From UHGV virus genome UHGV-0141735: DNA of 12,079 nt. One strand, given 5' to 3'. Positions 50 to 12,029 of the stretch are shown in pieces; position 1 is the first letter of the stretch, and every line of letters starts with the position of its first letter. The stretch comes from a virus. The notes under the pieces are model-generated. The model made no database searches. It saw nothing but the letters and a program-made list of their open reading frames with translations, and had not been told where the DNA came from. Both the position numbers and the translations under genes were made by a program.

Positions 50-1285
50 TTACGTGTGCAGTGTATGTTCGATTTTTTGATGTTTGAATAACCGATCAAC
101 CAATAATTCAAGTTTGTGAAAATCTGTAAGAGGATATAGCTTCACGATGTCTTCCTCAAAATTCGCTATACCTGATAATTTTTCTTTTTTTCGTAAGTAA
201 TCGATGGCAATTCTTTGTTCATTCGATATCTCAAACTGATTTTGATAATCTAAGGTTTTAAGTACTTGCCAAGACATAGGGGCTGTAAATTCGAAGTAAG
301 AAGCTAGTTTTGGACAAAAATCATATTGAATAGATTGCTTATAGGTTGCTTTAGGTGGTAATACAACATTAACAGAATATTTACTGCTCCTAGAATTCGG
401 CATTTTTGTAGAGTAATATGCTATCCCCGCTATTGGTGATTTAACCCGACGACCGATCCACTGCATTAATAAATTTGGGATTATATATTCAGGTGTGAAT
501 GATGAATTTTCTACGCGTTTTAAATAATTGCAAGCGATTAGTAATGGCCAGAATATCAAGTATGATGCTTTTGTTCTGTTTTCATCATATATTTTATTTT
601 CATCAACAGTTTTTTTAATTGGAAGTGAAAGGTGAGGAGAAGCAAAATTTAAAATTGTTGAATTTACATCGTTTGTAACGAAGGATGATATATATAATTT
701 ATCAAAATCTGGCTTTCCCATCTCTTGCCAACATACGTACAAGGATGTACCGAGATATAAGCAGGGTTGGCCTGCGACTGAATATCTTTGAGCATTCACT
801 AAATGTCTTTTTGAAAACGGAATATGAAATATTTGGTTGTGCTCAATCAAAGGGGTTTCTGATTTTCTGACCCGATAAAGTGGCTTTTCCTTATTGCAAA
901 AATCTTTTAGCAAGATACTAATTCGATTTAGTTGGGCTATTGTTGCCTCCTTTGACATAATGTCATCGAAAATGTCATATGCTTTTTTAATATCTCCAGA
1001 CAAAAACTCCTCTAGAGTTTTTTGTATGCACTTATGAATATTTGCAACTCGTCCTTTTAGAACTCTAAGTTCCCTACCGCATCCATTCATGTCTGCTTTT
1101 ATTGATTCATCAATTAAAGTCATATAAATTTTACATCGATTAGAAAAATCACTGGCTATATCGCCTTTAATGTTGAATGGTGGATTTAATTCTTCATGGC
1201 TCAATAGTCGCTCAAGAAAGTGATCAATCCAGAGTGCATTTTTCTTTTCTGATTCTAATTGAGTACTGGATTTTTTTTCGTCCAT
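50..1285 (-). CDS. Hypothetical AT-rich cargo protein (411 aa) with a central RES-like (Arg-Glu-Ser, NAD+-targeting toxin-type) region; function unproven
   Basis: Intact 411-codon ORF. Its ATG (1283-1285 on the minus strand) lies 4 nt downstream of the int stop, same orientation. Sample 60-nt lines count about 27-30% GC by hand, against about 60% in a gpA line. Motifs LYRVRK, then QRYSVAGQPCLYLGTSLYVCWQE, then AYYSTK...SVNVVLPP resemble the RES-domain core pattern (R ... G.P.LY.s.s...A..E ... S). Pattern-level only. Confidence 0.6.
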   Translation of the reverse strand: MDEKKSSTQLESEKKNALWIDHFLERLLSHEELNPPFNIKGDIASDFSNRCKIYMTLIDESIKADMNGCGRELRVLKGRVANIHKCIQKTLEEFLSGDIKKAYDIFDDIMSKEATIAQLNRISILLKDFCNKEKPLYRVRKSETPLIEHNQIFHIPFSKRHLVNAQRYSVAGQPCLYLGTSLYVCWQEMGKPDFDKLYISSFVTNDVNSTILNFASPHLSLPIKKTVDENKIYDENRTKASYLIFWPLLIACNYLKRVENSSFTPEYIIPNLLMQWIGRRVKSPIAGIAYYSTKMPNSRSSKYSVNVVLPPKATYKQSIQYDFCPKLASYFEFTAPMSWQVLKTLDYQNQFEISNEQRIAIDYLRKKEKLSGIANFEEDIVKLYPLTDFHKLELLVDRLFKHQKIEHTLHT

Positions 1286-1289
1286 GTTT

Positions 1290-2306
1290 TCACTCTATAT
1301 AGTTTAAAGGATTTTTAGTTACCGCATCCTCCAGATGATCTGGAGAAAAGTGCGCATAAATCATGGTCATTTTTATATCGGCATGGCCTAAAATTTCTTT
1401 AAGCACAAGTATGTTTCCTCCGTTCATCATAAAATGGCTGGCGAATGTATGACGTAATACATGGGTGCATTGACCCTCAGGAAGCTCAATATCGGCCCGC
1501 TTTACTGCACGCTCAAAGGCTTTTCTGCATGGTGAGAATAACTTCCCTCGATTTTTAGGAAGTTCGTTGTACAGATCCTGAGATATTGGCACGGTACGGT
1601 TTTTCTTGCCCTTCGTCTTGGTATAAGTGATGCGGTATTTGGATAATTGATGGCCCTGCAGATTTTCTGCTTCACTCCACCGTGCGCCAGTAGCTAGGCA
1701 TATTTTTGCAATCATTAGTAAGCTAGGGCTTTGAGATTCAGCACATGCCGCCAACAGGCGCTTGATTTCGTCCGTGGAAAGAAAAGCCAGCTCACCTTCG
1801 GCAATTTTGAAGGTCGGAAGTCCTGCCAGCGGGTTTGGTGCTGACCAGTGTCCTAGTTTTTTTAATGTACCGAACACCGATGATAGATTGCGCTGTTCAA
1901 GGTTTACCGTGCGGGGCTTAACGGGCGACATAAGCGTGCCATCTTCATTTCGTATTTCACCTTTTAACCGTGCTTCGCGGTATTTCGTAAAGTCTCCGGC
2001 TGTCAGTTCTGAGGCGATGGGGTCGCCTAGGCCATTACAGATAATTCTAAGTTTCGCCATGAGGCGCTTGGGGTCTGCGAGTGTCTGACCATACAGGGAA
2101 TACCAAAGCTCAATTAATTCTGATAGGCGTCGCCGATCATCCTTTTCACCCAACCACGGTTTTTTATTCACTTCTTCCATTGTGAAGCTTTCAAACGCAA
2201 TGGCTTCGCCTTTCGTGGCAAATTGCTTACGCACGCGCTTGCCATTGCGTCCATTGGGATAGCACTCGCACAACCATTTTCCGTTCGGCTGTTTTCTGAT
2301 GGTCAT
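1290..2306 (-). CDS. int: Tyrosine recombinase / phage integrase, P2/186 Int family
   Basis: 338 aa. C-terminal catalytic signature HVLRHTFASHFMMNGGNILVLKEILGHADIKMTMIYAHF (HxxR ... Y nucleophile), an upstream TGARWSEA box, and N-terminal GRNGKRVRKQF...AFE typical of P2-type Int. Its start is 1 nt from the repressor stop, the C-int operon layout. Confidence 0.95.
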   Translation of the reverse strand: MTIRKQPNGKWLCECYPNGRNGKRVRKQFATKGEAIAFESFTMEEVNKKPWLGEKDDRRRLSELIELWYSLYGQTLADPKRLMAKLRIICNGLGDPIASELTAGDFTKYREARLKGEIRNEDGTLMSPVKPRTVNLEQRNLSSVFGTLKKLGHWSAPNPLAGLPTFKIAEGELAFLSTDEIKRLLAACAESQSPSLLMIAKICLATGARWSEAENLQGHQLSKYRITYTKTKGKKNRTVPISQDLYNELPKNRGKLFSPCRKAFERAVKRADIELPEGQCTHVLRHTFASHFMMNGGNILVLKEILGHADIKMTMIYAHFSPDHLEDAVTKNPLNYIE

Positions 2307-2307
2307 A

Positions 2308-2940
2308 TCAAAGGCTCTTAATGATTTTCAGTGCGCGGCCTACTACCTCAATGTCATCCAGACCGCACTCAAACGATGAATCATCCTGATGCACTACTAA
2401 TTTGTTTCCCGGGAGTCGTGTCAATTTAACAATGCTTTTTATCCCGTCGATGTCCACTAACCACATACCATTTACTGGTGGTGTTTGGTTGCGATCTATT
2501 AAATAAGAATCACCAGAAGTAGTCACCAGCAGCAGGTTGCTTGAATCTGAGGGGAGTATGCTGCTATCAATGATTGCTTTTCCCGCATCGATCAATAAAC
2601 CACCGTTGAGAGTCGCCTTGTCAATTTCAGGAGATACTAGTTCAGAAAGAGGTACAACCTTGCTGGAGTTCACGGAATTGATATTTTTTTTAGGTTCAAT
2701 GTTTGGACCTGGCTCCCCCTGTCCGGTGGTTAGCCACAGTAAAGAAACTCCTGTTTCCAAGGCGCACTGAATCACCCACTCTGCAGGAAAACTATCTCTT
2801 AAGTATCTGTTTGCCATGGTGCTTTTTGATGCGCCTAAGTGATCGCAAAGTTGCTGTCTGGACTTGAAATCATAGGCTGCCATTAGTCTATGGATAGCCT
2901 CTCTTCCCCCTGTATTCTCTCCAACCTTTACCTGTATCAT
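2308..2940 (-). CDS. cI: Phage CI-type immunity repressor (N-terminal HTH, C-terminal oligomerisation/regulatory domain)
   Basis: 210 aa. Transcribed leftward from the early control region directly into int. N-terminus (RLMAAYDFKSRQQLCDHLGASKSTMANRYLR) looks like a phage CI-repressor HTH. The position matches 186 cI / P2 C. Confidence 0.8.
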   Translation of the reverse strand: MIQVKVGENTGGREAIHRLMAAYDFKSRQQLCDHLGASKSTMANRYLRDSFPAEWVIQCALETGVSLLWLTTGQGEPGPNIEPKKNINSVNSSKVVPLSELVSPEIDKATLNGGLLIDAGKAIIDSSILPSDSSNLLLVTTSGDSYLIDRNQTPPVNGMWLVDIDGIKSIVKLTRLPGNKLVVHQDDSSFECGLDDIEVVGRALKIIKSL

Positions 2941-2952
2941 TTTTTAATCCTG

Positions 2953-2981
2953 TTGACGTATCAAATATTGGATCGTAGTAT
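2953..2981 (+). promoter_or_regulatory. Candidate rightward early (lytic) promoter: -35 TTGACG (2953-2958), 17-bp spacer, -10 TAGTAT (2976-2981)
   Basis: Sigma70-like hexamers with 17-bp spacing, about 80 bp upstream of the first rightward gene (3060) and just upstream of the repressor start. Position is equivalent to pR/Pe of 186/P2. Confidence 0.45.
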
Positions 2982-3000
2982 CTCGATGTATCAAATATTG
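2958..3000. promoter_or_regulatory. Two identical 13-bp direct repeats GTATCAAATATTG (2958-2970 and 2988-3000) flanking the candidate -10; putative repressor operators
   Basis: Exact 13-bp direct repeat, 30 bp centre to centre, bracketing the -10 hexamer. P2-type C repressors are known to bind direct repeats flanking the early promoter -10. Confidence 0.45.
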
Positions 3001-3059
3001 AATCAAGTAAAACGAGATAAAACGACGTAAACCAAACCTTAATCGGGAGATACTGCACT

Positions 3060-3302
3060 ATGAGCACTGATATTTCAATTCGTGTACCAAAAGAGATGGC
3101 TACGCCTGCAGAGTTCGCGGAATGGGAAGGTATCTCCCGCGGCTCTGTGTATCAAAAAATTCACCATGGTCAGCTTGCTAAATACATGGTCAAGAAAGAA
3201 AAAAACAAAGGCCGCGTAAGCCTGCGTTATTTAATGTACAAAACCGATCAGGTCCGTGAATCCCTCGGTCATTCCAACTTCCGCGTCATTGTTGGTAAGT
3301 AA
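3060..3302 (+). CDS. Small DNA-binding regulator, Apl/Cox-like (excisionase / early-switch protein) by position
   Basis: 80 aa, first gene of the rightward operon opposite the repressor, as apl in 186 and cox in P2. Basic C-terminus, possible HTH (GISRGSVYQKIHHGQ). Positional inference. Confidence 0.55.
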   Translation: MSTDISIRVPKEMATPAEFAEWEGISRGSVYQKIHHGQLAKYMVKKEKNKGRVSLRYLMYKTDQVRESLGHSNFRVIVGK

Positions 3303-3334
3303 GTTCAATTATGAGAACTTTCTAAGGGGGTAGC

Positions 3335-3844
3335 ATGTTTGATTATAAGATTTCCAAACACCCGCATTTTGATGAAGCCTGTAGAGCTTTTGCACTTCGT
3401 CACAATATGGCGAAGCTGGCAGAACGTGCAGGAATGAATGTCCAGACTCTGCGAAACAAACTCAACCCAGATCAACCGCATCAGCTCAATGCGCCAGATA
3501 TCTGGCTACTTACCGATCTGACGGAAGATTCAACGCTGGTAGACGGTTTTCTGGCACAGATTCACTGCCTGCCATGTGTACCGATTAATGAGGTGGCAAA
3601 AGAGAAACTGCCACATTACGTCATGAGTGCAACCGCAGAGATCGGGCGTGTTGCTGCAGGTGCGGTATCTGGCGATGTAAAAACCAGTGCAGGTCGTCGT
3701 GATGCTATCAGCAGCATTAACTCTGTTACACGACTGATGGCGTTAGCTGCTGTTTCATTGCAGGCCCGTTTACAGGTTAATCCTGCGATGGCAAGTGCAG
3801 TTGATACTGTAACTGGCCTCGGTGCTTCATTCGGTTTGCTGTGA
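3335..3844 (+). CDS. cII: CII-like transcriptional activator (186 CII family)
   Basis: 169 aa. Strong RBS (AAGGGGG) 6 nt upstream. HTH-like segment NMAKLAERAGMNVQTLRNKLN. Position (second gene of early operon) and length match 186 CII as recalled from memory. Confidence 0.65.
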   Translation: MFDYKISKHPHFDEACRAFALRHNMAKLAERAGMNVQTLRNKLNPDQPHQLNAPDIWLLTDLTEDSTLVDGFLAQIHCLPCVPINEVAKEKLPHYVMSATAEIGRVAAGAVSGDVKTSAGRRDAISSINSVTRLMALAAVSLQARLQVNPAMASAVDTVTGLGASFGLL

Positions 3845-3851
3845 GGTGCTT

Positions 3852-4052
3852 ATGCTGACGAAAGAACCATCATTTGCATCGCTGCTGGTAAAACAAAGTC
3901 CGGCAATGCACTACGGTCACGGCTGGATCATGGGTGAGGATGGTAAACGCTGGCATCCGTGCCGTTCACAAGATGAATTGCTGGCAGAACTATCTACGAA
4001 AAAACGGGGGAACAAATGGCTATTGAAGGCGCTGCGGCGACTGTTCCATTAA
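3852..4052 (+). CDS. Small early protein of unknown function (positional equivalent of 186 fil / P2 orf78)
   Basis: ATG at 3852 preceded by GAGG 5 nt upstream, 8 nt after the cII stop. The longer ORF-track version starts at a GTG inside cII and is less likely. Confidence 0.45.
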   Translation: MLTKEPSFASLLVKQSPAMHYGHGWIMGEDGKRWHPCRSQDELLAELSTKKRGNKWLLKALRRLFH

Positions 4053-4357
4053 GCCCCGGTGAACGCCTGAATGGACTTAATCACATAGCGGAATTAAGGG
4101 CGAAAGTTTTTGGCCTGAATATTGAGTCAGAGCTTGAGCGGTTTATTAAAGATATGCGTGATCCACGGGATATCAATAACGAACAAAATAAACGAGCACT
4201 GGCAGCCATATTCTTTATGGCAAAAATTCCGGCTGAACGTCATAGCATCAGCATCAATGAGCTGACCACTGACGAAAAGCGGGAGTTGATTAAAGCAATG
4301 AATCATTTTCGTGCAGTGGTGAGCTTATTTCCCAGACGGCTAACCATGCCGAATTAA
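4016..4357 (+). CDS. Hypothetical early protein (113 aa)
   Basis: ORF with GGGGGA RBS 4 nt upstream of ATG 4016. Overlaps the previous small ORF by 37 nt. No recognisable motifs. Confidence 0.45.
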   Translation: MAIEGAAATVPLSPGERLNGLNHIAELRAKVFGLNIESELERFIKDMRDPRDINNEQNKRALAAIFFMAKIPAERHSISINELTTDEKRELIKAMNHFRAVVSLFPRRLTMPN

Positions 4358-4424
4358 CCAACTAATGAAATTAATGGCGTAAACCCGCCGGGCATCCCTT
4401 TATCTAAATTCAGGAGAATTGATT

Positions 4425-4658
4425 ATGCGTAATATTGAAATCCTCACGACTAAAACCGGACCGGATGATGCTGGGCTTAATATTTTACTGACAGAGGCTC
4501 GTCTGGAAGAACGCCGGGCAAGGGCTGAAGCAATGGCAGCTCGCCTTGATAGCCTGGCGTGTCATATCTCATCCCGTCAGCTAAACCACGTGGAAGCGGC
4601 AGAACTGCTGCGTGTGACTGCTGAAGCAATCCAGAACGAAGCGCAGGAGATCCACTAA
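4425..4658 (+). CDS. Hypothetical early protein (77 aa, Arg/Ala/Glu-rich, likely coiled coil)
   Basis: AGGAG RBS 8 nt upstream of ATG 4425. Its stop overlaps the start of the next gene (TAATG). Confidence 0.5.
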   Translation: MRNIEILTTKTGPDDAGLNILLTEARLEERRARAEAMAARLDSLACHISSRQLNHVEAAELLRVTAEAIQNEAQEIH

Positions 4659-4885
4659 TGGCTGATGCAATGGATCTCGTACAGCAGCGCGTTGAAGAAG
4701 AACGCCAGCGCCATATCCGTGCTGCCCGTGCCAAAACACCGGGCGTGTCTCGCGTGCTTTGCATTGAGTGTGAAGCGCCAATTCCGCCAGCACGCCGCCG
4801 TGCCATTCCGGGTGTGCAGCTTTGCATTACCTGCCAGGAAATTGCAGAGCTGAAAGGCAAACATTACAACGGAGGTGCTGTATGA
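4658..4885 (+). CDS. TraR/DksA-family C4 zinc-finger protein
   Basis: 75 aa with CIECEAPIPPARRRAIPGVQLCITCQ (CxxC-x17-CxxC), as in TraR/DksA-like small proteins common in P2-like early operons. Start and stop are overlap-coupled with neighbours. Confidence 0.75.
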   Translation: MADAMDLVQQRVEEERQRHIRAARAKTPGVSRVLCIECEAPIPPARRRAIPGVQLCITCQEIAELKGKHYNGGAV

Positions 4886-5736
4886 GCACCATCCTGAAAT
4901 GGGCGGGAAATAAAACCGCCATTATGTCCGAACTGAAAAAACACCTTCCTGCTGGCCCGCGACTGGTTGAACCTTTCGCGGGTTCCTGTGCAGTGATGAT
5001 GGAGACGGATTACCCCAGCTATCTGGTTGCGGATATTAATCCTGATTTAATCAACCTCTATAAAAAGGTTGCCGCTGATTGTGAATCGTTTATATCTCGC
5101 GCCAGAGTTTTATTTGAGAACGCAAACAGGGAGATGGATTATTACAACATAAGGCAGGAGTTTAATTACTCAACTGAAATTACTGATTTCATGAAAGCGG
5201 TATATTTCCTGTATCTCAATCGTCACGGTTACCGTGGTTTATGCCGCTATAACAAGAGCGGGCATTTCAACATTCCCTACGGTAATTATAAAAATCCGTA
5301 TTTCCCTGAAAAAGAAATTCGCGCATTTGCAGAAAAAGCCCAGCGGGCAACGTTTATCTGCGCCAGCTTTGATGAAACGCTGGCGATGTTGAAAGCGGGG
5401 GATGTGGTGTATTGCGATCCGCCGTATGACGGTACGTTTTCCGGCTATCACACTGATGGTTTCACTGAAGATGACCAGTATCACCTGGCATCCGTTCTTG
5501 AACATCGAGCATCTGAAGGACATCCGGTCATTGTTTCTAACAGTGACACGTCTTTGACCCGGTCTCTTTATCGTAATTTCACTCACCACTACATCAGGGC
5601 GAAACGCAGCATCGGCGTTGCAGCGGGGGAGGGAAAATTTGCAACAGAGATGATTGCCACTAAATCTGCTAATTGGTTTAGTGCCGATTTTAGTAGGGGA
5701 CGTGACTCTACTGTTATTTTCGGGGTGCAAGTGTGA
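4882..5736 (+). CDS. dam: DNA adenine methyltransferase (Dam family, GATC N6-adenine MTase)
   Basis: N-terminal LKWAGNK...LVEPFAGS (AdoMet-binding motif), [19 protein letters not shown], and catalytic VYCDPPY; near-collinear with E. coli Dam. True start is ATG 4882 (GGAGGTG RBS, ATGA overlap with upstream stop), not the longer 4822 ORF. Confidence 0.95.
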
Positions 5737-6563
5737 AAGAAATGCACCACGGAATTCATCATTTCCATGGGACGCCTGTCTGGGGAAGTGCTGGCGACGT
5801 TCATCGTATTGCGGTGAGCGGAGCTGGTGCTTTCGTCTCCTATGTACGACCAGATCAGATTGCGGCGTCCATTCAGCACGCTCAGGTCGTCGGCATTGAT
5901 AACGGCGCATTTTCTGCATGGGTGCGTGGGCTAAAAATTAACTGGAGTGATTTTTATAAATGGCTCCTGAACTATTACCACCATCCTAAGGTCGCTTTTT
6001 TTGTCATTCCTGATGTTGTGGACGGAGGTGAACGTGACAATGATGCCCTGATAAACGAAGTTCCGAAAATGTTCTACGGGAAGGCAACTCCCGTCTGGCA
6101 TCTGCACGAGTCAATCGATCGGCTTATCGAGCTATGTCGTGAATGGCCTCGTGTCTGCTTTGGATCGTCTGGTGAATATGCGGCTATTAGAACTGCGCAC
6201 TGGCATCGTCGTATGCAGGACGCTTTTGAAGCAATTTATTGCCGACACAATTTCAAAACAGCTGTTCATGGTTTGCGCATGCTTGACGGTCGTGTGTTGG
6301 GAAATTACCCACTGGCGACTGCCGACAGTACAAATCTTGCCTGCAATGTCCCCAAATTTAATAGCAAATATCCTGAGCTTACGCGGGCTATTCAGGAGGC
6401 TGAGTATTCGCGCAATCTGACGGAAAAGGAGCTGAAAGCTGTCATTCTGAAAAACCGTTGCGCAATTTTAAAAGGTGCAATTGAAGCTGTTCGCCCACCT
6501 TCAGTTTCTGACTGGCTGTCGAATGGTTTGCAGCCTTCACAGCTCGAACTGGAGATTGCGTAA
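5733..6563 (+). CDS. Conserved hypothetical protein (276 aa); possible TGT/DpdA-like DNA-modification enzyme (speculative)
   Basis: Start (GTG 5733 or ATG 5742) overlaps the dam stop and its stop overlaps the gpA start (TAATG), so it is translationally coupled inside the early operon. [12 protein letters not shown] resembles the DSGGFQ catalytic-Asp motif of tRNA-guanine transglycosylase-fold proteins, but the Cys/His zinc site is not evident. Confidence 0.6.
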
Positions 6564-8935
6564 TGAACTACAGCTATTCCTGGAATGCTGAGAAAAAAGC
6601 AATCAATCCTTACGTAGAGACAGAAGAGCAATCTTCAGTTTCTGCGCTTTCAAACCTGATCACTCTGTACGCTGTCGATAACGAGCAGGAACAACTGCGT
6701 CGCGAGGCACTGAGTGATCAGGTCTGGGAGCGTTATTTCTTTAATGAATCCCGTGATCCTGTCCAACGCGAAATGGAGCAGGATAAGCTCATTAGTCGGG
6801 CAAAGCTGGCGCATGAGCAGCAGCGTTTTAATCCGGATATGGTCATTCTGGCGGACGTCAACGCCCAGCCTTCCCATATCAGCAAGCCGCTGATGCAACG
6901 TATTGAATACTTCAGCAGCCTGGGCAGGCCAAAGGCTTATTCCCGCTATTTGCGTGAGACGATTAAGCCATGTCTGGAACGGCTGGAGCATGTACGCGAC
7001 AGTCAGCTATCCACTTCTTTTCGCTTTATTGCGAGCCATGAAGGGCTGGACGGCCTGCTGATCCTGCCTGAAATGAGTCAGGATCAGGTGAAACGCCTGT
7101 CCACCCTGGTAGCTGCGCATATGAGCATGTGCCTTGATGCCGCTTGTGGTGATTTGTACGCCACCGATGATGTTAAGCCAGAAGAAATCCGCAAGACATG
7201 GGAAAAGGTGGCAGCGGAAACCCTGCGTCTGGATGTCATCCCGCCTGCGTTTGAGCAACTCCGCCGGAAAAGAAACCGCCGTAAACCCGTGCCCTATGAA
7301 CTCATTCCGGGTTCGCTGGCGCGTATGTTGTGCGCTGACTGGTGGTACCGGAAATTATGGAAGATGCGTTGCGAATGGCGGGAAGAGCAGTTGCGTGCTG
7401 TCTGCCTTGTCAGCAAAAAAGCATCTCCCTATGTCAGCTATGAAGCCGTGATGCATAAACGTGAGCAGCGCCGTAAGTCGCTGGAGTTTTTCCGTTCTCA
7501 TGAACTGGTGAACGAAGACGGCGACACGCTGGACATGGAGGATGTGGTAAACGCCAGCAGCAGCAACCCTGCGCATCGCCGCAATGAGATGATGGCCTGT
7601 GTTAAAGGTCTGGAGCTTATCGCGGAAATGCGTGGCGACTGCGCCGTTTTCTACACCATCACCTGTCCGTCACGTTTCCATTCCACGCTAAATAACGGCA
7701 GGCCCAACCCGACCTGGACAAATGCGACGGTAAGACAAAGCAGTGATTATCTGGTCGGCATGTTTGCTGCATTTCGTAAGGCGATGCACAAAGCCGGATT
7801 GCGCTGGTATGGCGTGCGGGTGGCTGAGCCGCATCATGACGGCACAGTTCACTGGCACCTGTTGTGTTTTATGCGCAAAAAAGACCGCCGCGCCATTACT
7901 GCTTTGTTGCGTAAGTTTGCCATTCGTGAAGACTGCGAGGAGCTGGGTAATAACACGGGGCCACGCTTTAAGTCTGAGCTGATAAACCCGCGCAAAGGAA
8001 CGCCGACAAGCTACATCGCGAAATATATCAGCAAGAACATTGACGGGCGTGGTCTGGCTGGCGAGATCAGCAAGGAAACGGGTAAATCTCTGCGTGATAA
8101 CGCTGAATACGTGAATGCCTGGGCGTCTTTGCATCGTGTTCAGCAATTCCGCTTCTTTGGTATTCCGGGACGTCAGGCTTACCGTGAACTTCGCTTGCTG
8201 GCTGGTCAGGCGGCAAGGCAACAGGGTGACAAAAAAGCAGGTGCGCCGGTACTGGATAACCCGCGTCTTGATGCCATTCTGGCTGCTGCTGATGCTGGTT
8301 GTTTTGCCACCTACATCATGAAGCAGGGCGGCGTACTGGTTCCCCGTAAATATCACCTCATCAGAACCGCTTATGAAATCAACGAAGAGCCGACCGCCTA
8401 TGGCGATCACGGTATTCGTATTTATGGCATCTGGTCACCCATTGCAGAGGGCAAGATCTGCACTCATGCAGTGAAGTGGAAAATGGTTCGTAAAGCCGTT
8501 GACGTTCAGGAGGCGGCAGCCGACCAGGGCGCTTGCGCCCCTTGGACTCGTGGCAATAACTGTCCCTTTGCTGAAAATTTGAACCAACAGGAGAAAGATA
8601 AATCAGCTGATGGGGACCCCAGAACGGACATTACCAGCATGGATGACAAGGAGTTGCACGATTACCTGCACAGTATGAGCAAAAAAGAGCGCCGGGAACT
8701 GGCAGCAAGGTTACGCCTGGTGAAACCGAAACGGCGTAAAGACTACAAACAGCGAATTACAGACCATCAGCGACTGCAGCTCGTGTATGAGCTGAAGTCC
8801 AGAGGATTTGATGGCAGCGAGAAAGAGGTCGATTTACTCCTTCGCGGAGGCAGTATTCCGTCAGGAGCAGGCCTGCGTATCTTCTATCGGAACCAGCGTT
8901 TGCAGGAAGATGATCAGTGGCGGAACCTGTATTAA
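6563..8935 (+). CDS. A: Rolling-circle replication initiator endonuclease (P2 gpA family, HUH relaxase-type)
   Basis: 790 aa. HUH motif VHWHLLCF and paired catalytic tyrosines YIAKYISK (YxxKY) in the expected order and spacing. Size and position match P2/186 gene A. Confidence 0.9.
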
Positions 8936-9029
8936 TTACGCGGGTTAACAATTCGTGCTCTTAATAATACCAGGCATATCAGGCTGATGAACGTAAAAAA
9001 ACGTTTTACATCAGTAAGATTATTATATA

Positions 9030-9045
9030 CTGTAAATATAAACAG
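9030..9045. promoter_or_regulatory. LexA (SOS) box CTGTAAATATAAACAG
   Basis: Perfect CTGT-N8-ACAG palindrome, AT-rich centre, flanks TA...TG (tactgtaaatataaacagtg), about 44 bp upstream of ATG 9089. Confidence 0.55.
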
Positions 9046-9088
9046 TGGTTATACATACAGTATTGCGTGTGGTGTCATAGGAGGAAAG

Positions 9089-9277
9089 ATGCAGGACTAT
9101 TTTTTGGAGTCTTTGAAGCTCCAGCGCATTGATTTTTTTCTTAAGCTTGTAGCGGCTAGTGAGTGTAGTGATGAAGAGAAGGGGCTGGCTCTGCAGTGGG
9201 TTTCTGAATTGACTGATGAACTCATGGCAAAAATCAGAACCCACGAATACAACCGCTCAATGGATGTCATCAGCTGA
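9089..9277 (+). CDS. Small hypothetical protein (62 aa), first gene of the SOS-controlled module
   Basis: ATG 9089 with AGGAGG 4-5 nt upstream, downstream of the LexA box. The longer 8987 start would place the LexA box inside the coding region, so the short form is preferred. Confidence 0.4.
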   Translation: MQDYFLESLKLQRIDFFLKLVAASECSDEEKGLALQWVSELTDELMAKIRTHEYNRSMDVIS

Positions 9278-9287
9278 GGTGACTTTT

Positions 9288-9521
9288 ATGCGCATTGAAA
9301 TAATGATCGATAAAGAGCAGAAGATTAGCCAGTCTACCCTAGACGCCCTTGAATCCGAGCTTTACCGCAATCTGCGCCCCCTGTATCCCAAAACGGTAAT
9401 TCGCATTCGCAAAGGTAGCTCTAACGGTGTGGAACTAACCGGACTGCAACTGGACGAAGAAAGAAAACAAGTGATGAAAATTATGCAGAAGGTGTGGGAA
9501 GACGACAGCTGGCTGCATTAA
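9288..9521 (+). CDS. DinI-family protein (186 Tum-like SOS-inducible module)
   Basis: 77 aa, MRIEIMIDKEQ...LDALESELYRNL...KIMQKVWEDDSWLH, collinear with E. coli DinI (MRIEVTIAK...ILQETWESADDWF). GAGGTG RBS 6 nt upstream. Confidence 0.85.
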   Translation: MRIEIMIDKEQKISQSTLDALESELYRNLRPLYPKTVIRIRKGSSNGVELTGLQLDEERKQVMKIMQKVWEDDSWLH

Positions 9522-9656
9522 GAAACGTTGCTGGCGTCTGAACTTGCTTCTGGCGTCAGCAAGGTTGAACAACGAGCCCTTGCGAGGCGTTAGCTCTGTA
9601 GTGCATGTCTATGCCGCATGAGATCGCATGATCGTTTGAGGATCGTTTTTGCTAAG

Positions 9657-10561: not shown

Positions 10562-11200
10562 TTATTCTTCTGAAAGAATATAGGGCGTAAATTTAATCAC
10601 TTCTTCGCCCAGCCAGTCGTTCAGCTCTTGTAGCCTTTTTTGCAAGGGCGTTAATTCATTACGTACAAATACGCGACTGGCCTTCTCCACATCCCCAAAC
10701 CCTCCAACATTATTAGGCATAATCCCCATCATTTGCGGCGGCACGCGGTGCGCAGCCATCATGTCGTCGCGGCTGACATTTTTGATATTCAAAAACTCAT
10801 CCTTCGCCGCGACTTCTGACAATGGGATGATCTGAAGCCCGTCTTTTTTGCCGTTAGGCGAGTACATAAACAGGTTGCGGAAGTTGCCTGGACCTTTGGC
10901 GCTTTTCATCGCATTGCGGAGGTTGTTCACATCCTCCTGGTTTTGCGCGGCATCGGTCATGTACATGATAAAGCCCGCATGACTGCCGTTAATGTAATAC
11001 TTGCGACGGAACAGCGTGGCGGACTCGTTGAGCAGGGCTGACGGAATGGCAGAAAGATAACCGGGCAGGCCGTAGATCTCCTGATTAATATCCGGTTCCA
11101 TCAGATGAAAAATGCTGCCTTTCGTGAACTGATACGGCTGGGTTGTCATACCGTATTGCACAAACCAGTAGGTAACGGTTTTACGACCAGTATTGAACTT
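10562..11200 (-). pseudogene. Q: 5'-truncated portal gene (P2 gpQ family), C-terminal roughly 210 codons retained
   Basis: From about TGRKTVTYWFVQ to the C-terminus (DMMAAHRVPPQMMGIMPNNVGGFGDVEKASRVFVRNELTPLQKRLQELNDWLGEEV) the translation reads as a portal protein. The ORF's N-terminal 45 residues are low-complexity and overlap the ogr start, so the upstream boundary (about 11200) is approximate. Confidence 0.65.
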
Positions 11201-11301
11201 GAAGTGAAAATTGGTGATCTTGAAATGGAATAAATGGTTCTCAATATTGATATTTTGTGTATCATTGCAATGATTCTGATAGCAAAGGTAGGGATCTGGA
11301 T

Positions 11302-11520
11302 ATGATGAATTGTCCAAAGTGTGGTCATGCGGCGCACACAAGGAGCAGTTTTCAAGTAACAGAAAGCACCAAAGAGCGTTACTGCCAGTGCCAAAATATT
11401 AACTGCGGGAGCACTTTTGTTACCCATGAAACAGTGGTCCGGTTTATTGTGACACCTGCAGTGATTGCCACAGCCCCTCCACATCCATTGCCAGGTGGTC
11501 AGGGCCATATGAATTTTTAA
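11302..11520 (+). CDS. ogr: Ogr/Delta-family zinc-finger late-gene transcriptional activator
   Basis: MMNCPKCGHAAHTRSS...KERYCQCQNINCGSTFVTHETVVRFIV...PHPLPGGQ is collinear with P2 Ogr (CxxC-x22-CxC-x4-C). Start at ATG 11302 preferred over the longer 11257 ORF. Confidence 0.9.
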   Translation: MMNCPKCGHAAHTRSSFQVTESTKERYCQCQNINCGSTFVTHETVVRFIVTPAVIATAPPHPLPGGQGHMNF

Positions 11521-11527
11521 GAAAGAG

Positions 11528-11549
11528 AACCTGCTACGGCAGGTTTTTA
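11528..11549 (+). terminator. Hairpin plus T-tract after ogr (AACCTGC-TACG-GCAGGTT-TTTTA)
   Basis: 7-bp stem, 4-nt loop, followed by TTTTTA. The stop of the convergent minus-strand gene lies in the T-tract. Confidence 0.45.
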
Positions 11550-12029
11550 TTCATCTGGGATCTCACCCGTTTCAAGAAAATGTATAAAGCCAGGCTCATC
11601 TATGATGATAGTGCCTTTCATCCTGGCTGCCGATACTTTTGATGGGCCTGCATTGTAACCGCAACAGAGCATCTGAAGGTTTTGGGTTACAGATGTTCTT
11701 ACCGTTAATCCTTGTTCATTCGCCTTATCAACCAACCTTTCTTTATCTGCTTTCTTAAATCCGGTGAAACACACATCGAATGTATTTTTTTTCGGACCTG
11801 ACTGCTTAGTGAGATGTGAGTAGTTTTCGGGGAGGAATGACGCGCATTCCTGAATGGCTTGTTCTTGTGAATCGTATTGTTTAAGAATGCGGTCTTTTCG
11901 GAAGGTTTTTATTCGATCGGTGTTCTTACAAATGCCCTGTATGTGATTTTCGCTATAACTGATGCTCTGTATTGAGTGAACACCGATACGACCATTTGCA
12001 TTGATGTAAACAAAGTGAAGTTCTTCCAT
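11547..12029 (-). CDS. Small BRCT-domain protein (160 aa) with a beta-rich N-terminal domain; unknown function
   Basis: Good SD (AAGAGG) upstream of ATG. C-terminal VCFTGFKKADKERLVDKANEQGLTVRTSVTQNLQMLCCGYNAGPSKVSAARMKGTIIIDEPGFIHFLETGE fits the BRCT pattern (hydrophobic-TG start, central G-G/S-K, C-terminal hydrophobic acidic end). AT-rich relative to the prophage core. Confidence 0.65.
   Translation of the reverse strand: MEELHFVYINANGRIGVHSIQSISYSENHIQGICKNTDRIKTFRKDRILKQYDSQEQAIQECASFLPENYSHLTKQSGPKKNTFDVCFTGFKKADKERLVDKANEQGLTVRTSVTQNLQMLCCGYNAGPSKVSAARMKGTIIIDEPGFIHFLETGEIPDE

Follow-up and report, generated by a model that had tools for sequence, protein, structure and literature searches.

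A dpdA-like gene between dam and gene A in the early operon of a deleted P2/186-like Escherichia coli prophage

The stretch of DNA analysed here (UHGV virus genome UHGV-0141735, 12,079 nucleotides, hereafter the window) is the early region of a P2/186-like E. coli prophage, as seen from the Pfam and PHROG annotation of its open reading frames (ORFs). The following genes are encoded:

1290-2306, minus strand: integrase
2308-2940, minus strand: CI repressor (PF07022 and PF16452)
3060-3302, plus strand: 80-amino-acid ORF without Pfam match, the AR_0017 counterpart of which is annotated as Rha-family transcriptional regulator
3335-3844, rightward operon: CII/CP76
3822-4052, rightward operon: Fil-type cell-division inhibitor
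4016-4357, rightward operon: DUF5347 protein
4419-4658, rightward operon: DUF2732 protein
4658-4885, rightward operon: TraR/DksA protein, its stop overlapped by the dam start
4882 (ATG) to 5736, plus strand: dam, D12-class N6-adenine DNA methyltransferase of 284 amino acids (PF02086, E=3.8e-76)
5733-6563, plus strand: dpdA-like gene, predicted TGT-fold TIM barrel at about residues 9-205 and clade-specific helical C-terminal extension at 206-276
6563-8935, plus strand: gene A (gpA), replication initiation endonuclease (PF05840, E=3.3e-127)
9216-9521, rightward operon: DinI
11257-11520: ogr/Delta zinc-finger gene, located after the 3' end of late gene D

An identical gene order is annotated in intact prophages, e.g. 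in E. coli AR_0017. From the DUF2732 gene to gpA, neighbouring genes overlap by 1 to 4 bases, or are separated by a 5-base gap if ATG 5742 is the true start of the dpdA-like gene. This arrangement is typical of co-transcribed genes; the block is probably transcribed as a unit, with translational coupling likely. A scan of positions 2800-9600 for promoter and terminator consensus sequences gave counts at or below chance, and no convincing terminator was found between dam, the dpdA-like ORF and gpA.

The prophage is a deletion derivative with its junction near position 11174 (window 10562-11520). Homology to intact P2/186-like prophages stops inside the portal gene, of which it covers the 3' part as far as approximately 11174, and continues directly with the 3' end of late gene D. 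These two pieces are about 20 kb apart in the intact relative NZ_OY754453.1. Because of this portal-to-gene-D deletion all head, tail and lysis genes are missing, and the element is incapable of making virions. Several further ORFs lie at the edges and in the variable part of the prophage. A 411-amino-acid ORF (50-1285, minus strand) adjoins the integrase gene at the prophage edge and has a GC content of 33-36% compared to 45-55% in the prophage core. Its sole match is phrog_7835 (E=6e-142), a group of unknown function; searches of Pfam and PADLOC gave none. Both its location and its base composition are suggestive of accessory or defence cargo. Between DinI and the portal gene, in the variable region, a 232-amino-acid DUF4145 protein (PF13643; 9855-10553, plus strand) with an N-terminal cysteine-rich motif is encoded, which falls in PHROG 1305 (labelled 'DNA binding protein') and weakly matches PD-T7-4 (E=1.2e-6), a candidate defence protein of PADLOC. 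Past ogr, at the prophage end, a 160-amino-acid protein is encoded (11547-12029, minus strand), for which a weak BRCT-domain match (PF00533, E=9e-4, just short of the Pfam cut-off), a weak PADLOC PDC-S48 match and a match to PHROG 2561 ('DNA ligase', E=2.5e-77) were obtained. It is far too short for a ligase.

Direct reading of the DNA gives for the dpdA-like ORF a length of 276 amino acids with a GTG start (5733-5735), which overlaps the dam stop TGA (5734-5736) in the sequence GTGA, and a stop codon TAA (6561-6563), which overlaps the gpA start ATG (6563-6565) by one base in the sequence TAATG. Both overlaps had been described in a preceding sequence-only reading of the window, and its naming of Dam and gpA as the neighbours is borne out by the Pfam matches listed above. 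RefSeq places the start at the in-frame ATG 5742, resulting in a protein of 273 amino acids. The homologues differ in their first 7-9 residues, and conservation sets in at about residue 9 (IHHFHGTP), so that the same enzyme would be made from either start and the interpretation is unaffected.

Based on sequence comparison, the protein is assigned to the already described phage DpdA family, in which it falls into the DpdA-only (singleton) clade. It matches PHROG 887 ('queuine tRNA-ribosyltransferase') with E=2.4e-96, and the same PHROG is matched by the DpdA proteins of the phages CAjan (E=8e-96) and MED16 (E=3e-70). In a database clustered at 90% identity, 4313 homologues were obtained at E<=1e-3, and an exhaustive HMM search yielded 890 clusters at 50% identity; the ORF is thus far beyond chance. 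A family profile (A2) built from 75 distant members taken from the HMM search, with a mean column identity of 28%, aligned to CAjan DpdA over 174 columns with an hhalign probability of 98.9% (E=1.5e-17), while direct BLASTP against CAjan DpdA gave 22% identity (E=0.001). A TGT-like (beta/alpha)8 barrel fold was found. For MED16 DpdA, a link to the TGT of Thermotoga maritima (HHpred, 99.18%) has been published (PMC8306585). Searches of the protein against Pfam, NCBIfam and PADLOC returned nothing, PF01702 (the Pfam TGT family) gave no match in the query or in the 75 family members, and against PDB sequences phmmer and two family-profile hmmsearches gave noise only (e.g. a coat protein and GCN4 coiled coils). 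With hhalign, the family profile reached about 2% probability both against the single E. coli Tgt and against 16 aligned Tgt sequences, a value that is uninformative rather than negative because the Tgt alignment is too narrow (83-89% identity, Neff 1.6).

Six residues are invariant in all 75 members (D56, D94, H123, H179, D198 and S199), and position 60 is aromatic (F, Y or W) throughout. They are located in five motifs, all on the plus strand:

5895-5915: I-D56-N-G-A-F60-S, aligned to LDSGAFS of CAjan DpdA
6006-6026: I-P-D94-V-V-D97-G, with D94 in 75 of 75 members and D97 variable
6090-6110: P-V-W-H123-L-H-E126, with H123 in 75 and E126 in 71 of 75 members, aligned to PCFHFGE of CAjan DpdA
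6267-6281: H179-G-L-R-M, with H179 invariant, aligned to KLHAFGIT of CAjan DpdA
6318-6335: T-A-D198-S199-T-N, with D198 and S199 in 75 of 75 members, aligned to SCDSSS of CAjan DpdA

In the hhalign alignment, D56, H123, H179 and D198-S199 face identical residues of CAjan DpdA. The order of the motifs (D56-N-G-A-F60, P-D94, W-H123-x-H-E, H179-G-L-R, A-D198-S-T) is that of the catalytic set of bacterial DpdA, where D95 acts as general acid/base, the base is stacked upon by F99 and contacted at its edge by D130 and H181, and the nucleophile is D256 (PMC10164549). By analogy with D95 and F99 of that enzyme and with the DSGGF motif of TGT, D56 may serve as general acid/base and residue 60 as base-stacking aromatic. 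H123 is probably the base-edge histidine equivalent to H181, and D198 is the putative catalytic nucleophile, corresponding to D256 of bacterial DpdA and D264 of E. coli Tgt. A parallel set, consisting of D73/S74, D122, H226 and D248, is found in Cap10, in which the catalytic pair H226/D248 is 22 residues apart (10.1101/2025.04.06.647259). The H179/D198 pair, with H179 located 19 residues ahead of D198, may resemble it.

The sequence-only reading had guessed at a phage DpdA-type enzyme of the TGT fold, and the PHROG 887 and hhalign results support this. Its DSGGFQ-like catalytic-aspartate motif is present at residues 52-63 around the invariant D56. The second aspartate box that it proposed at residues 89-99 stands in so far as D94 is invariant, whereas its exact equivalence is uncertain by three residues, since hhalign pairs D97 with the aspartate of CAjan DpdA and places D94 opposite a serine. 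The absence of an apparent canonical zinc site was noted correctly: the protein contains five cysteines (135, 142, 170, 204 and 243), none of them conserved across the 75 members, and its sequence has no CxC motif. Since no cysteine is conserved, the protein lacks the defining zinc site of TGT and bacterial DpdA.

The family comprises the gammaproteobacterial DpdA-only group, with identities to the window protein of about 75.7% (gp38 of the P2-like Salmonella phage SEN1), 75% (gp39 of Salmonella phage SW9), 55% (gp38 of Pantoea phage MED16), 38% (HK106 gp29) and approximately 35% (Salmonella phage 7-11). No preQ0 synthesis genes are present in the genomes of these five phages. The SEN1 protein is listed together with those of HK106, PEAT2, SE131 and 7-11 in Supplementary Data 1 of Hutinet et al. 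2019 (PMC6884629), and SEN1 gp38 and SW9 gp39 have been named the closest viral homologues of MED16 DpdA (PMC8306585). DNA of phage 7-11 contains dADG at about 0.02% of G (PMC6884629), and that of MED16 contains dADG at about 0.13% of G and traces of dPreQ0 and is still cut by the restriction enzymes tested (PMC8306585). The origin of ADG without a DpdC-type enzyme and the role of the sparse mark were posed as questions in both papers (PMC6884629, PMC8306585). Our literature search found no study after 2023 that characterises the singleton clade or settles the origin or role of ADG, and no paper on HK106 and deazaguanine. SW9 is a P2/186-like phage, in which the homologue is likewise located immediately upstream of gene A, with a DUF5405 gene where the window prophage has the overlapping dam. 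The lineage of the window gene, that of the P2/186-like prophages, thus already had a catalogued orthologue; the gene is a new member that borders on the already known, and it differs from the copies in the DpdA-only phages in being carried by an E. coli prophage without morphogenesis genes.

DpdA (DpdA1) of Escherichia phage CAjan and Enterobacteria phage 9g is a preQ0 DNA transglycosylase encoded beside folE, queD, queE and queC. CAjan DpdA has PHROG 887 in common with the window protein, and both lack the CxCxxC zinc motif, but it is longer (306 versus 276 amino acids) and its C-terminal region is unrelated. With its own preQ0 pathway, CAjan converts about 32% of G to dPreQ0 (PMC6884629), compared to 0.02-0.13% dADG in relatives of the window protein; deletion of CAjan dpdA abolishes dPreQ0 in the phage DNA (PMC6884629). 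DpdA2, the type found in Vibrio phage nt-1, is without the active-site histidine that is conserved in DpdA (PMC6884629). The nt-1 protein R9TGF0 (464 amino acids, a candidate DpdA2) gave a weak structural match (E=6.7e-4), and the two histidines H123 and H179, invariant in the 75 members, argue against DpdA2. Bacterial DpdA, as that of Salmonella Montevideo (PDB 7UI4), has 413 amino acids, four insertions and a CxCx2Cx22H zinc site, requires the DpdB ATPase, and is accompanied by DpdC, which makes dADG (PMC10164549). The insertions and the zinc site are absent from the window protein, neither partner gene is present, and the neighbours are dam and gpA instead of a dpdA-K cluster; identity with bacterial DpdA was therefore ruled out.

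The same comparison bears on the substrate. Tgt (PF01702) acts on tRNA, whereas the expected substrate of the dpdA-like protein, by analogy, is DNA; the protein is about 100 residues shorter than Tgt and lacks its zinc subdomain, its N-terminal beta-sheet lid and a match to its Pfam family. Cap10 of type IV CBASS (PDB 9NTN; 11% sequence identity to the dpdA-like protein) acts on a deazaguanine attached to the N-terminal end of a CD-NTase, for which it depends on Cap9 (10.1101/2025.04.06.647259). A protein-modifying enzyme of the Cap10 type was rejected because Cap9 (QueC-like) and CD-NTase partners are absent. More generally, an active TGT-fold transglycosylase could be directed at something other than DNA, either host or phage tRNA (queuosine status) or a protein-linked deazaguanine as with Cap10. 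We consider this quite improbable: neither the window nor related prophages contain a Cap9/QueC-like gene or a CD-NTase, the zinc subdomain of the tRNA-modifying TGTs is missing, the closest relative by sequence profile is the DNA-acting CAjan DpdA, and modified deoxynucleosides have been measured in the DNA of two phages with clade members.

Of 5426 complete E. coli genomes, 103 carry the allele at >=95% DNA identity, including 102 in which identity is >=99%. Among the matches listed that cover the whole gene, it is always located between dam and gpA and annotated as 'hypothetical protein', the label also used by RefSeq in the E. coli records examined. Close relatives occur in Enterobacter, Citrobacter, Klebsiella, Salmonella, Serratia, Pectobacterium, Yersinia and other genera. 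When the early region (4800-9000) was used as query, 1278 E. coli genomes matched partly and 101 of these covered >=80% of it. In other phages and prophages the position varies. In a truncated 186-like remnant of Serratia (L011 5001-5807), the homologue is located between traR and gpA without dam. Since SW9 also lacks dam at this position, a fixed functional pair with dam was rejected. Two lambdoid E. coli prophages (L009 5001-5810 and L010 5001-5804) carry homologues of 63-67% identity directly upstream of the endolysin gene and few genes before terminase, in L009 with a weak holin match just upstream. In HK106 (L008 3992-4792) the homologue lies near xis and int, and in the Flyfo siphovirus Tbat1_6 (L006 5043-5783) a 61%-identical homologue lies beside terminase. 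The dpdA-like gene is accordingly mobile cargo, found in differing slots of many temperate and virulent Enterobacterales phages.

A gene of the Vut_1/YhhQ family (PF02592, E=4.7e-10; L006 4525-5001) is located directly upstream of the Tbat1_6 homologue, in the T1-like phage Lg3 the homologue directly follows a 40%-identical copy of this small transporter (L007 3543-4022), and a similar Vut_1/YhhQ-like gene is found within the preQ0 cluster of CAjan (L005 32084-32563). YhhQ represents a preQ0/queuosine-precursor transporter family. The three phage proteins, of about 159 amino acids, have approximately half the length of bacterial YhhQ and are putative transporters. As genomic evidence of an independent kind, this linkage indicates that a 7-deazaguanine base is handled by the clade.

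The mobility of the gene could also mean that it is a weak or inactive cargo gene ('moron'), either a DNA-binding accessory of early replication or a hitch-hiker without modification function in E. coli. The gene is dispensable, since of the 1278 genomes with early-region matches only the 101 mentioned cover most of the query and 103 genomes carry the allele; its position differs between phages, and it persists in deleted prophages. Furthermore, DpdA1 of phiSM is inactive in E. coli, and the singleton DpdA of Orion gives no modification, though Orion's host lacks preQ0 synthesis (PMC6884629, PMC10516641). A weak or inactive product is nevertheless unlikely, as the putative catalytic residues are strictly invariant in 75 members of about 28% mean identity, which indicates selection on catalysis, the allele is conserved at >=99% in 102 genomes, and a precursor transporter gene is linked to the homologue in two phages.

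Taken together, the gene probably encodes a DpdA-type DNA transglycosylase of the DpdA-only clade, which would exchange guanine in DNA for a host-derived 7-deazaguanine. Activity, substrate base, mark density and any protective role are all steps past family membership, which we infer by analogy. No que or folE genes were matched among the window ORFs scanned; since the prophage thus lacks preQ0 synthesis genes, the base would come from the FolE/QueD/QueE/QueC pathway of the host. E. coli encodes folE, queD, queE, queC, queF and yhhQ. No DpdB partner is encoded in the window, and phage DpdA enzymes work in E. coli without one (PMC6884629, PMC10516641). Because the early operon that contains the gene is repressed by CI, production of the enzyme would begin on induction, along with that of the replication protein. 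Guanine would then be flipped out of the double-stranded phage DNA after replication and bound by a minimal TGT-fold (beta/alpha)8 barrel without zinc subdomain, where D94 and H123 would read the base edge and F60 would stack on the base. [quoted passage not shown] By analogy with MED16 and 7-11, the product might be sparse dADG with traces of dPreQ0 at about 0.02-0.13% of G, i.e. between a few and about 20 sites in a genome of 30 kb, and no bulk replacement.

Such a low density might point to a role other than bulk anti-restriction. A singleton DpdA could be a self-sufficient, site-specific epigenetic writer independent of DpdB and DpdC, which would install 7-amido-7-deazaguanine (ADG) directly, or make it from preQ0 via its clade-specific C-terminal extension, at a small number of defined positions in each genome. 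This proposal is speculative and rather doubtful at present. If true, the mark might serve for self-marking against a deazaguanine-reading defence or for the control of replication or packaging; the latter is considered because of the coupling to gene A in the window and the lysis and terminase neighbours in other phages.

With the assignment to the DpdA family, a gene labelled 'hypothetical protein' gains a testable function, the insertion of host-derived 7-deazaguanine into DNA, and a pervasive annotation is corrected for a gene that is carried by about 2% of the complete E. coli genomes and by numerous prophages of Enterobacterales. The current picture of DpdA systems is unchanged by this. 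With a single gene in E. coli, a simple model is available for the purpose of the sparse dADG mark of the DpdA-only phages and for its origin without DpdC.

Two database proteins are chimeras that include parts of the dpdA-like protein. In P0011 (421 amino acids) the N-terminal part of Dam (PF02086) is fused to dpdA-like residues 46-271, while in P0125 (399 amino acids) dpdA-like residues 1-178 are fused to a GPD tail-protein domain (PF05954). Both probably represent other internal prophage deletions or assembly errors.
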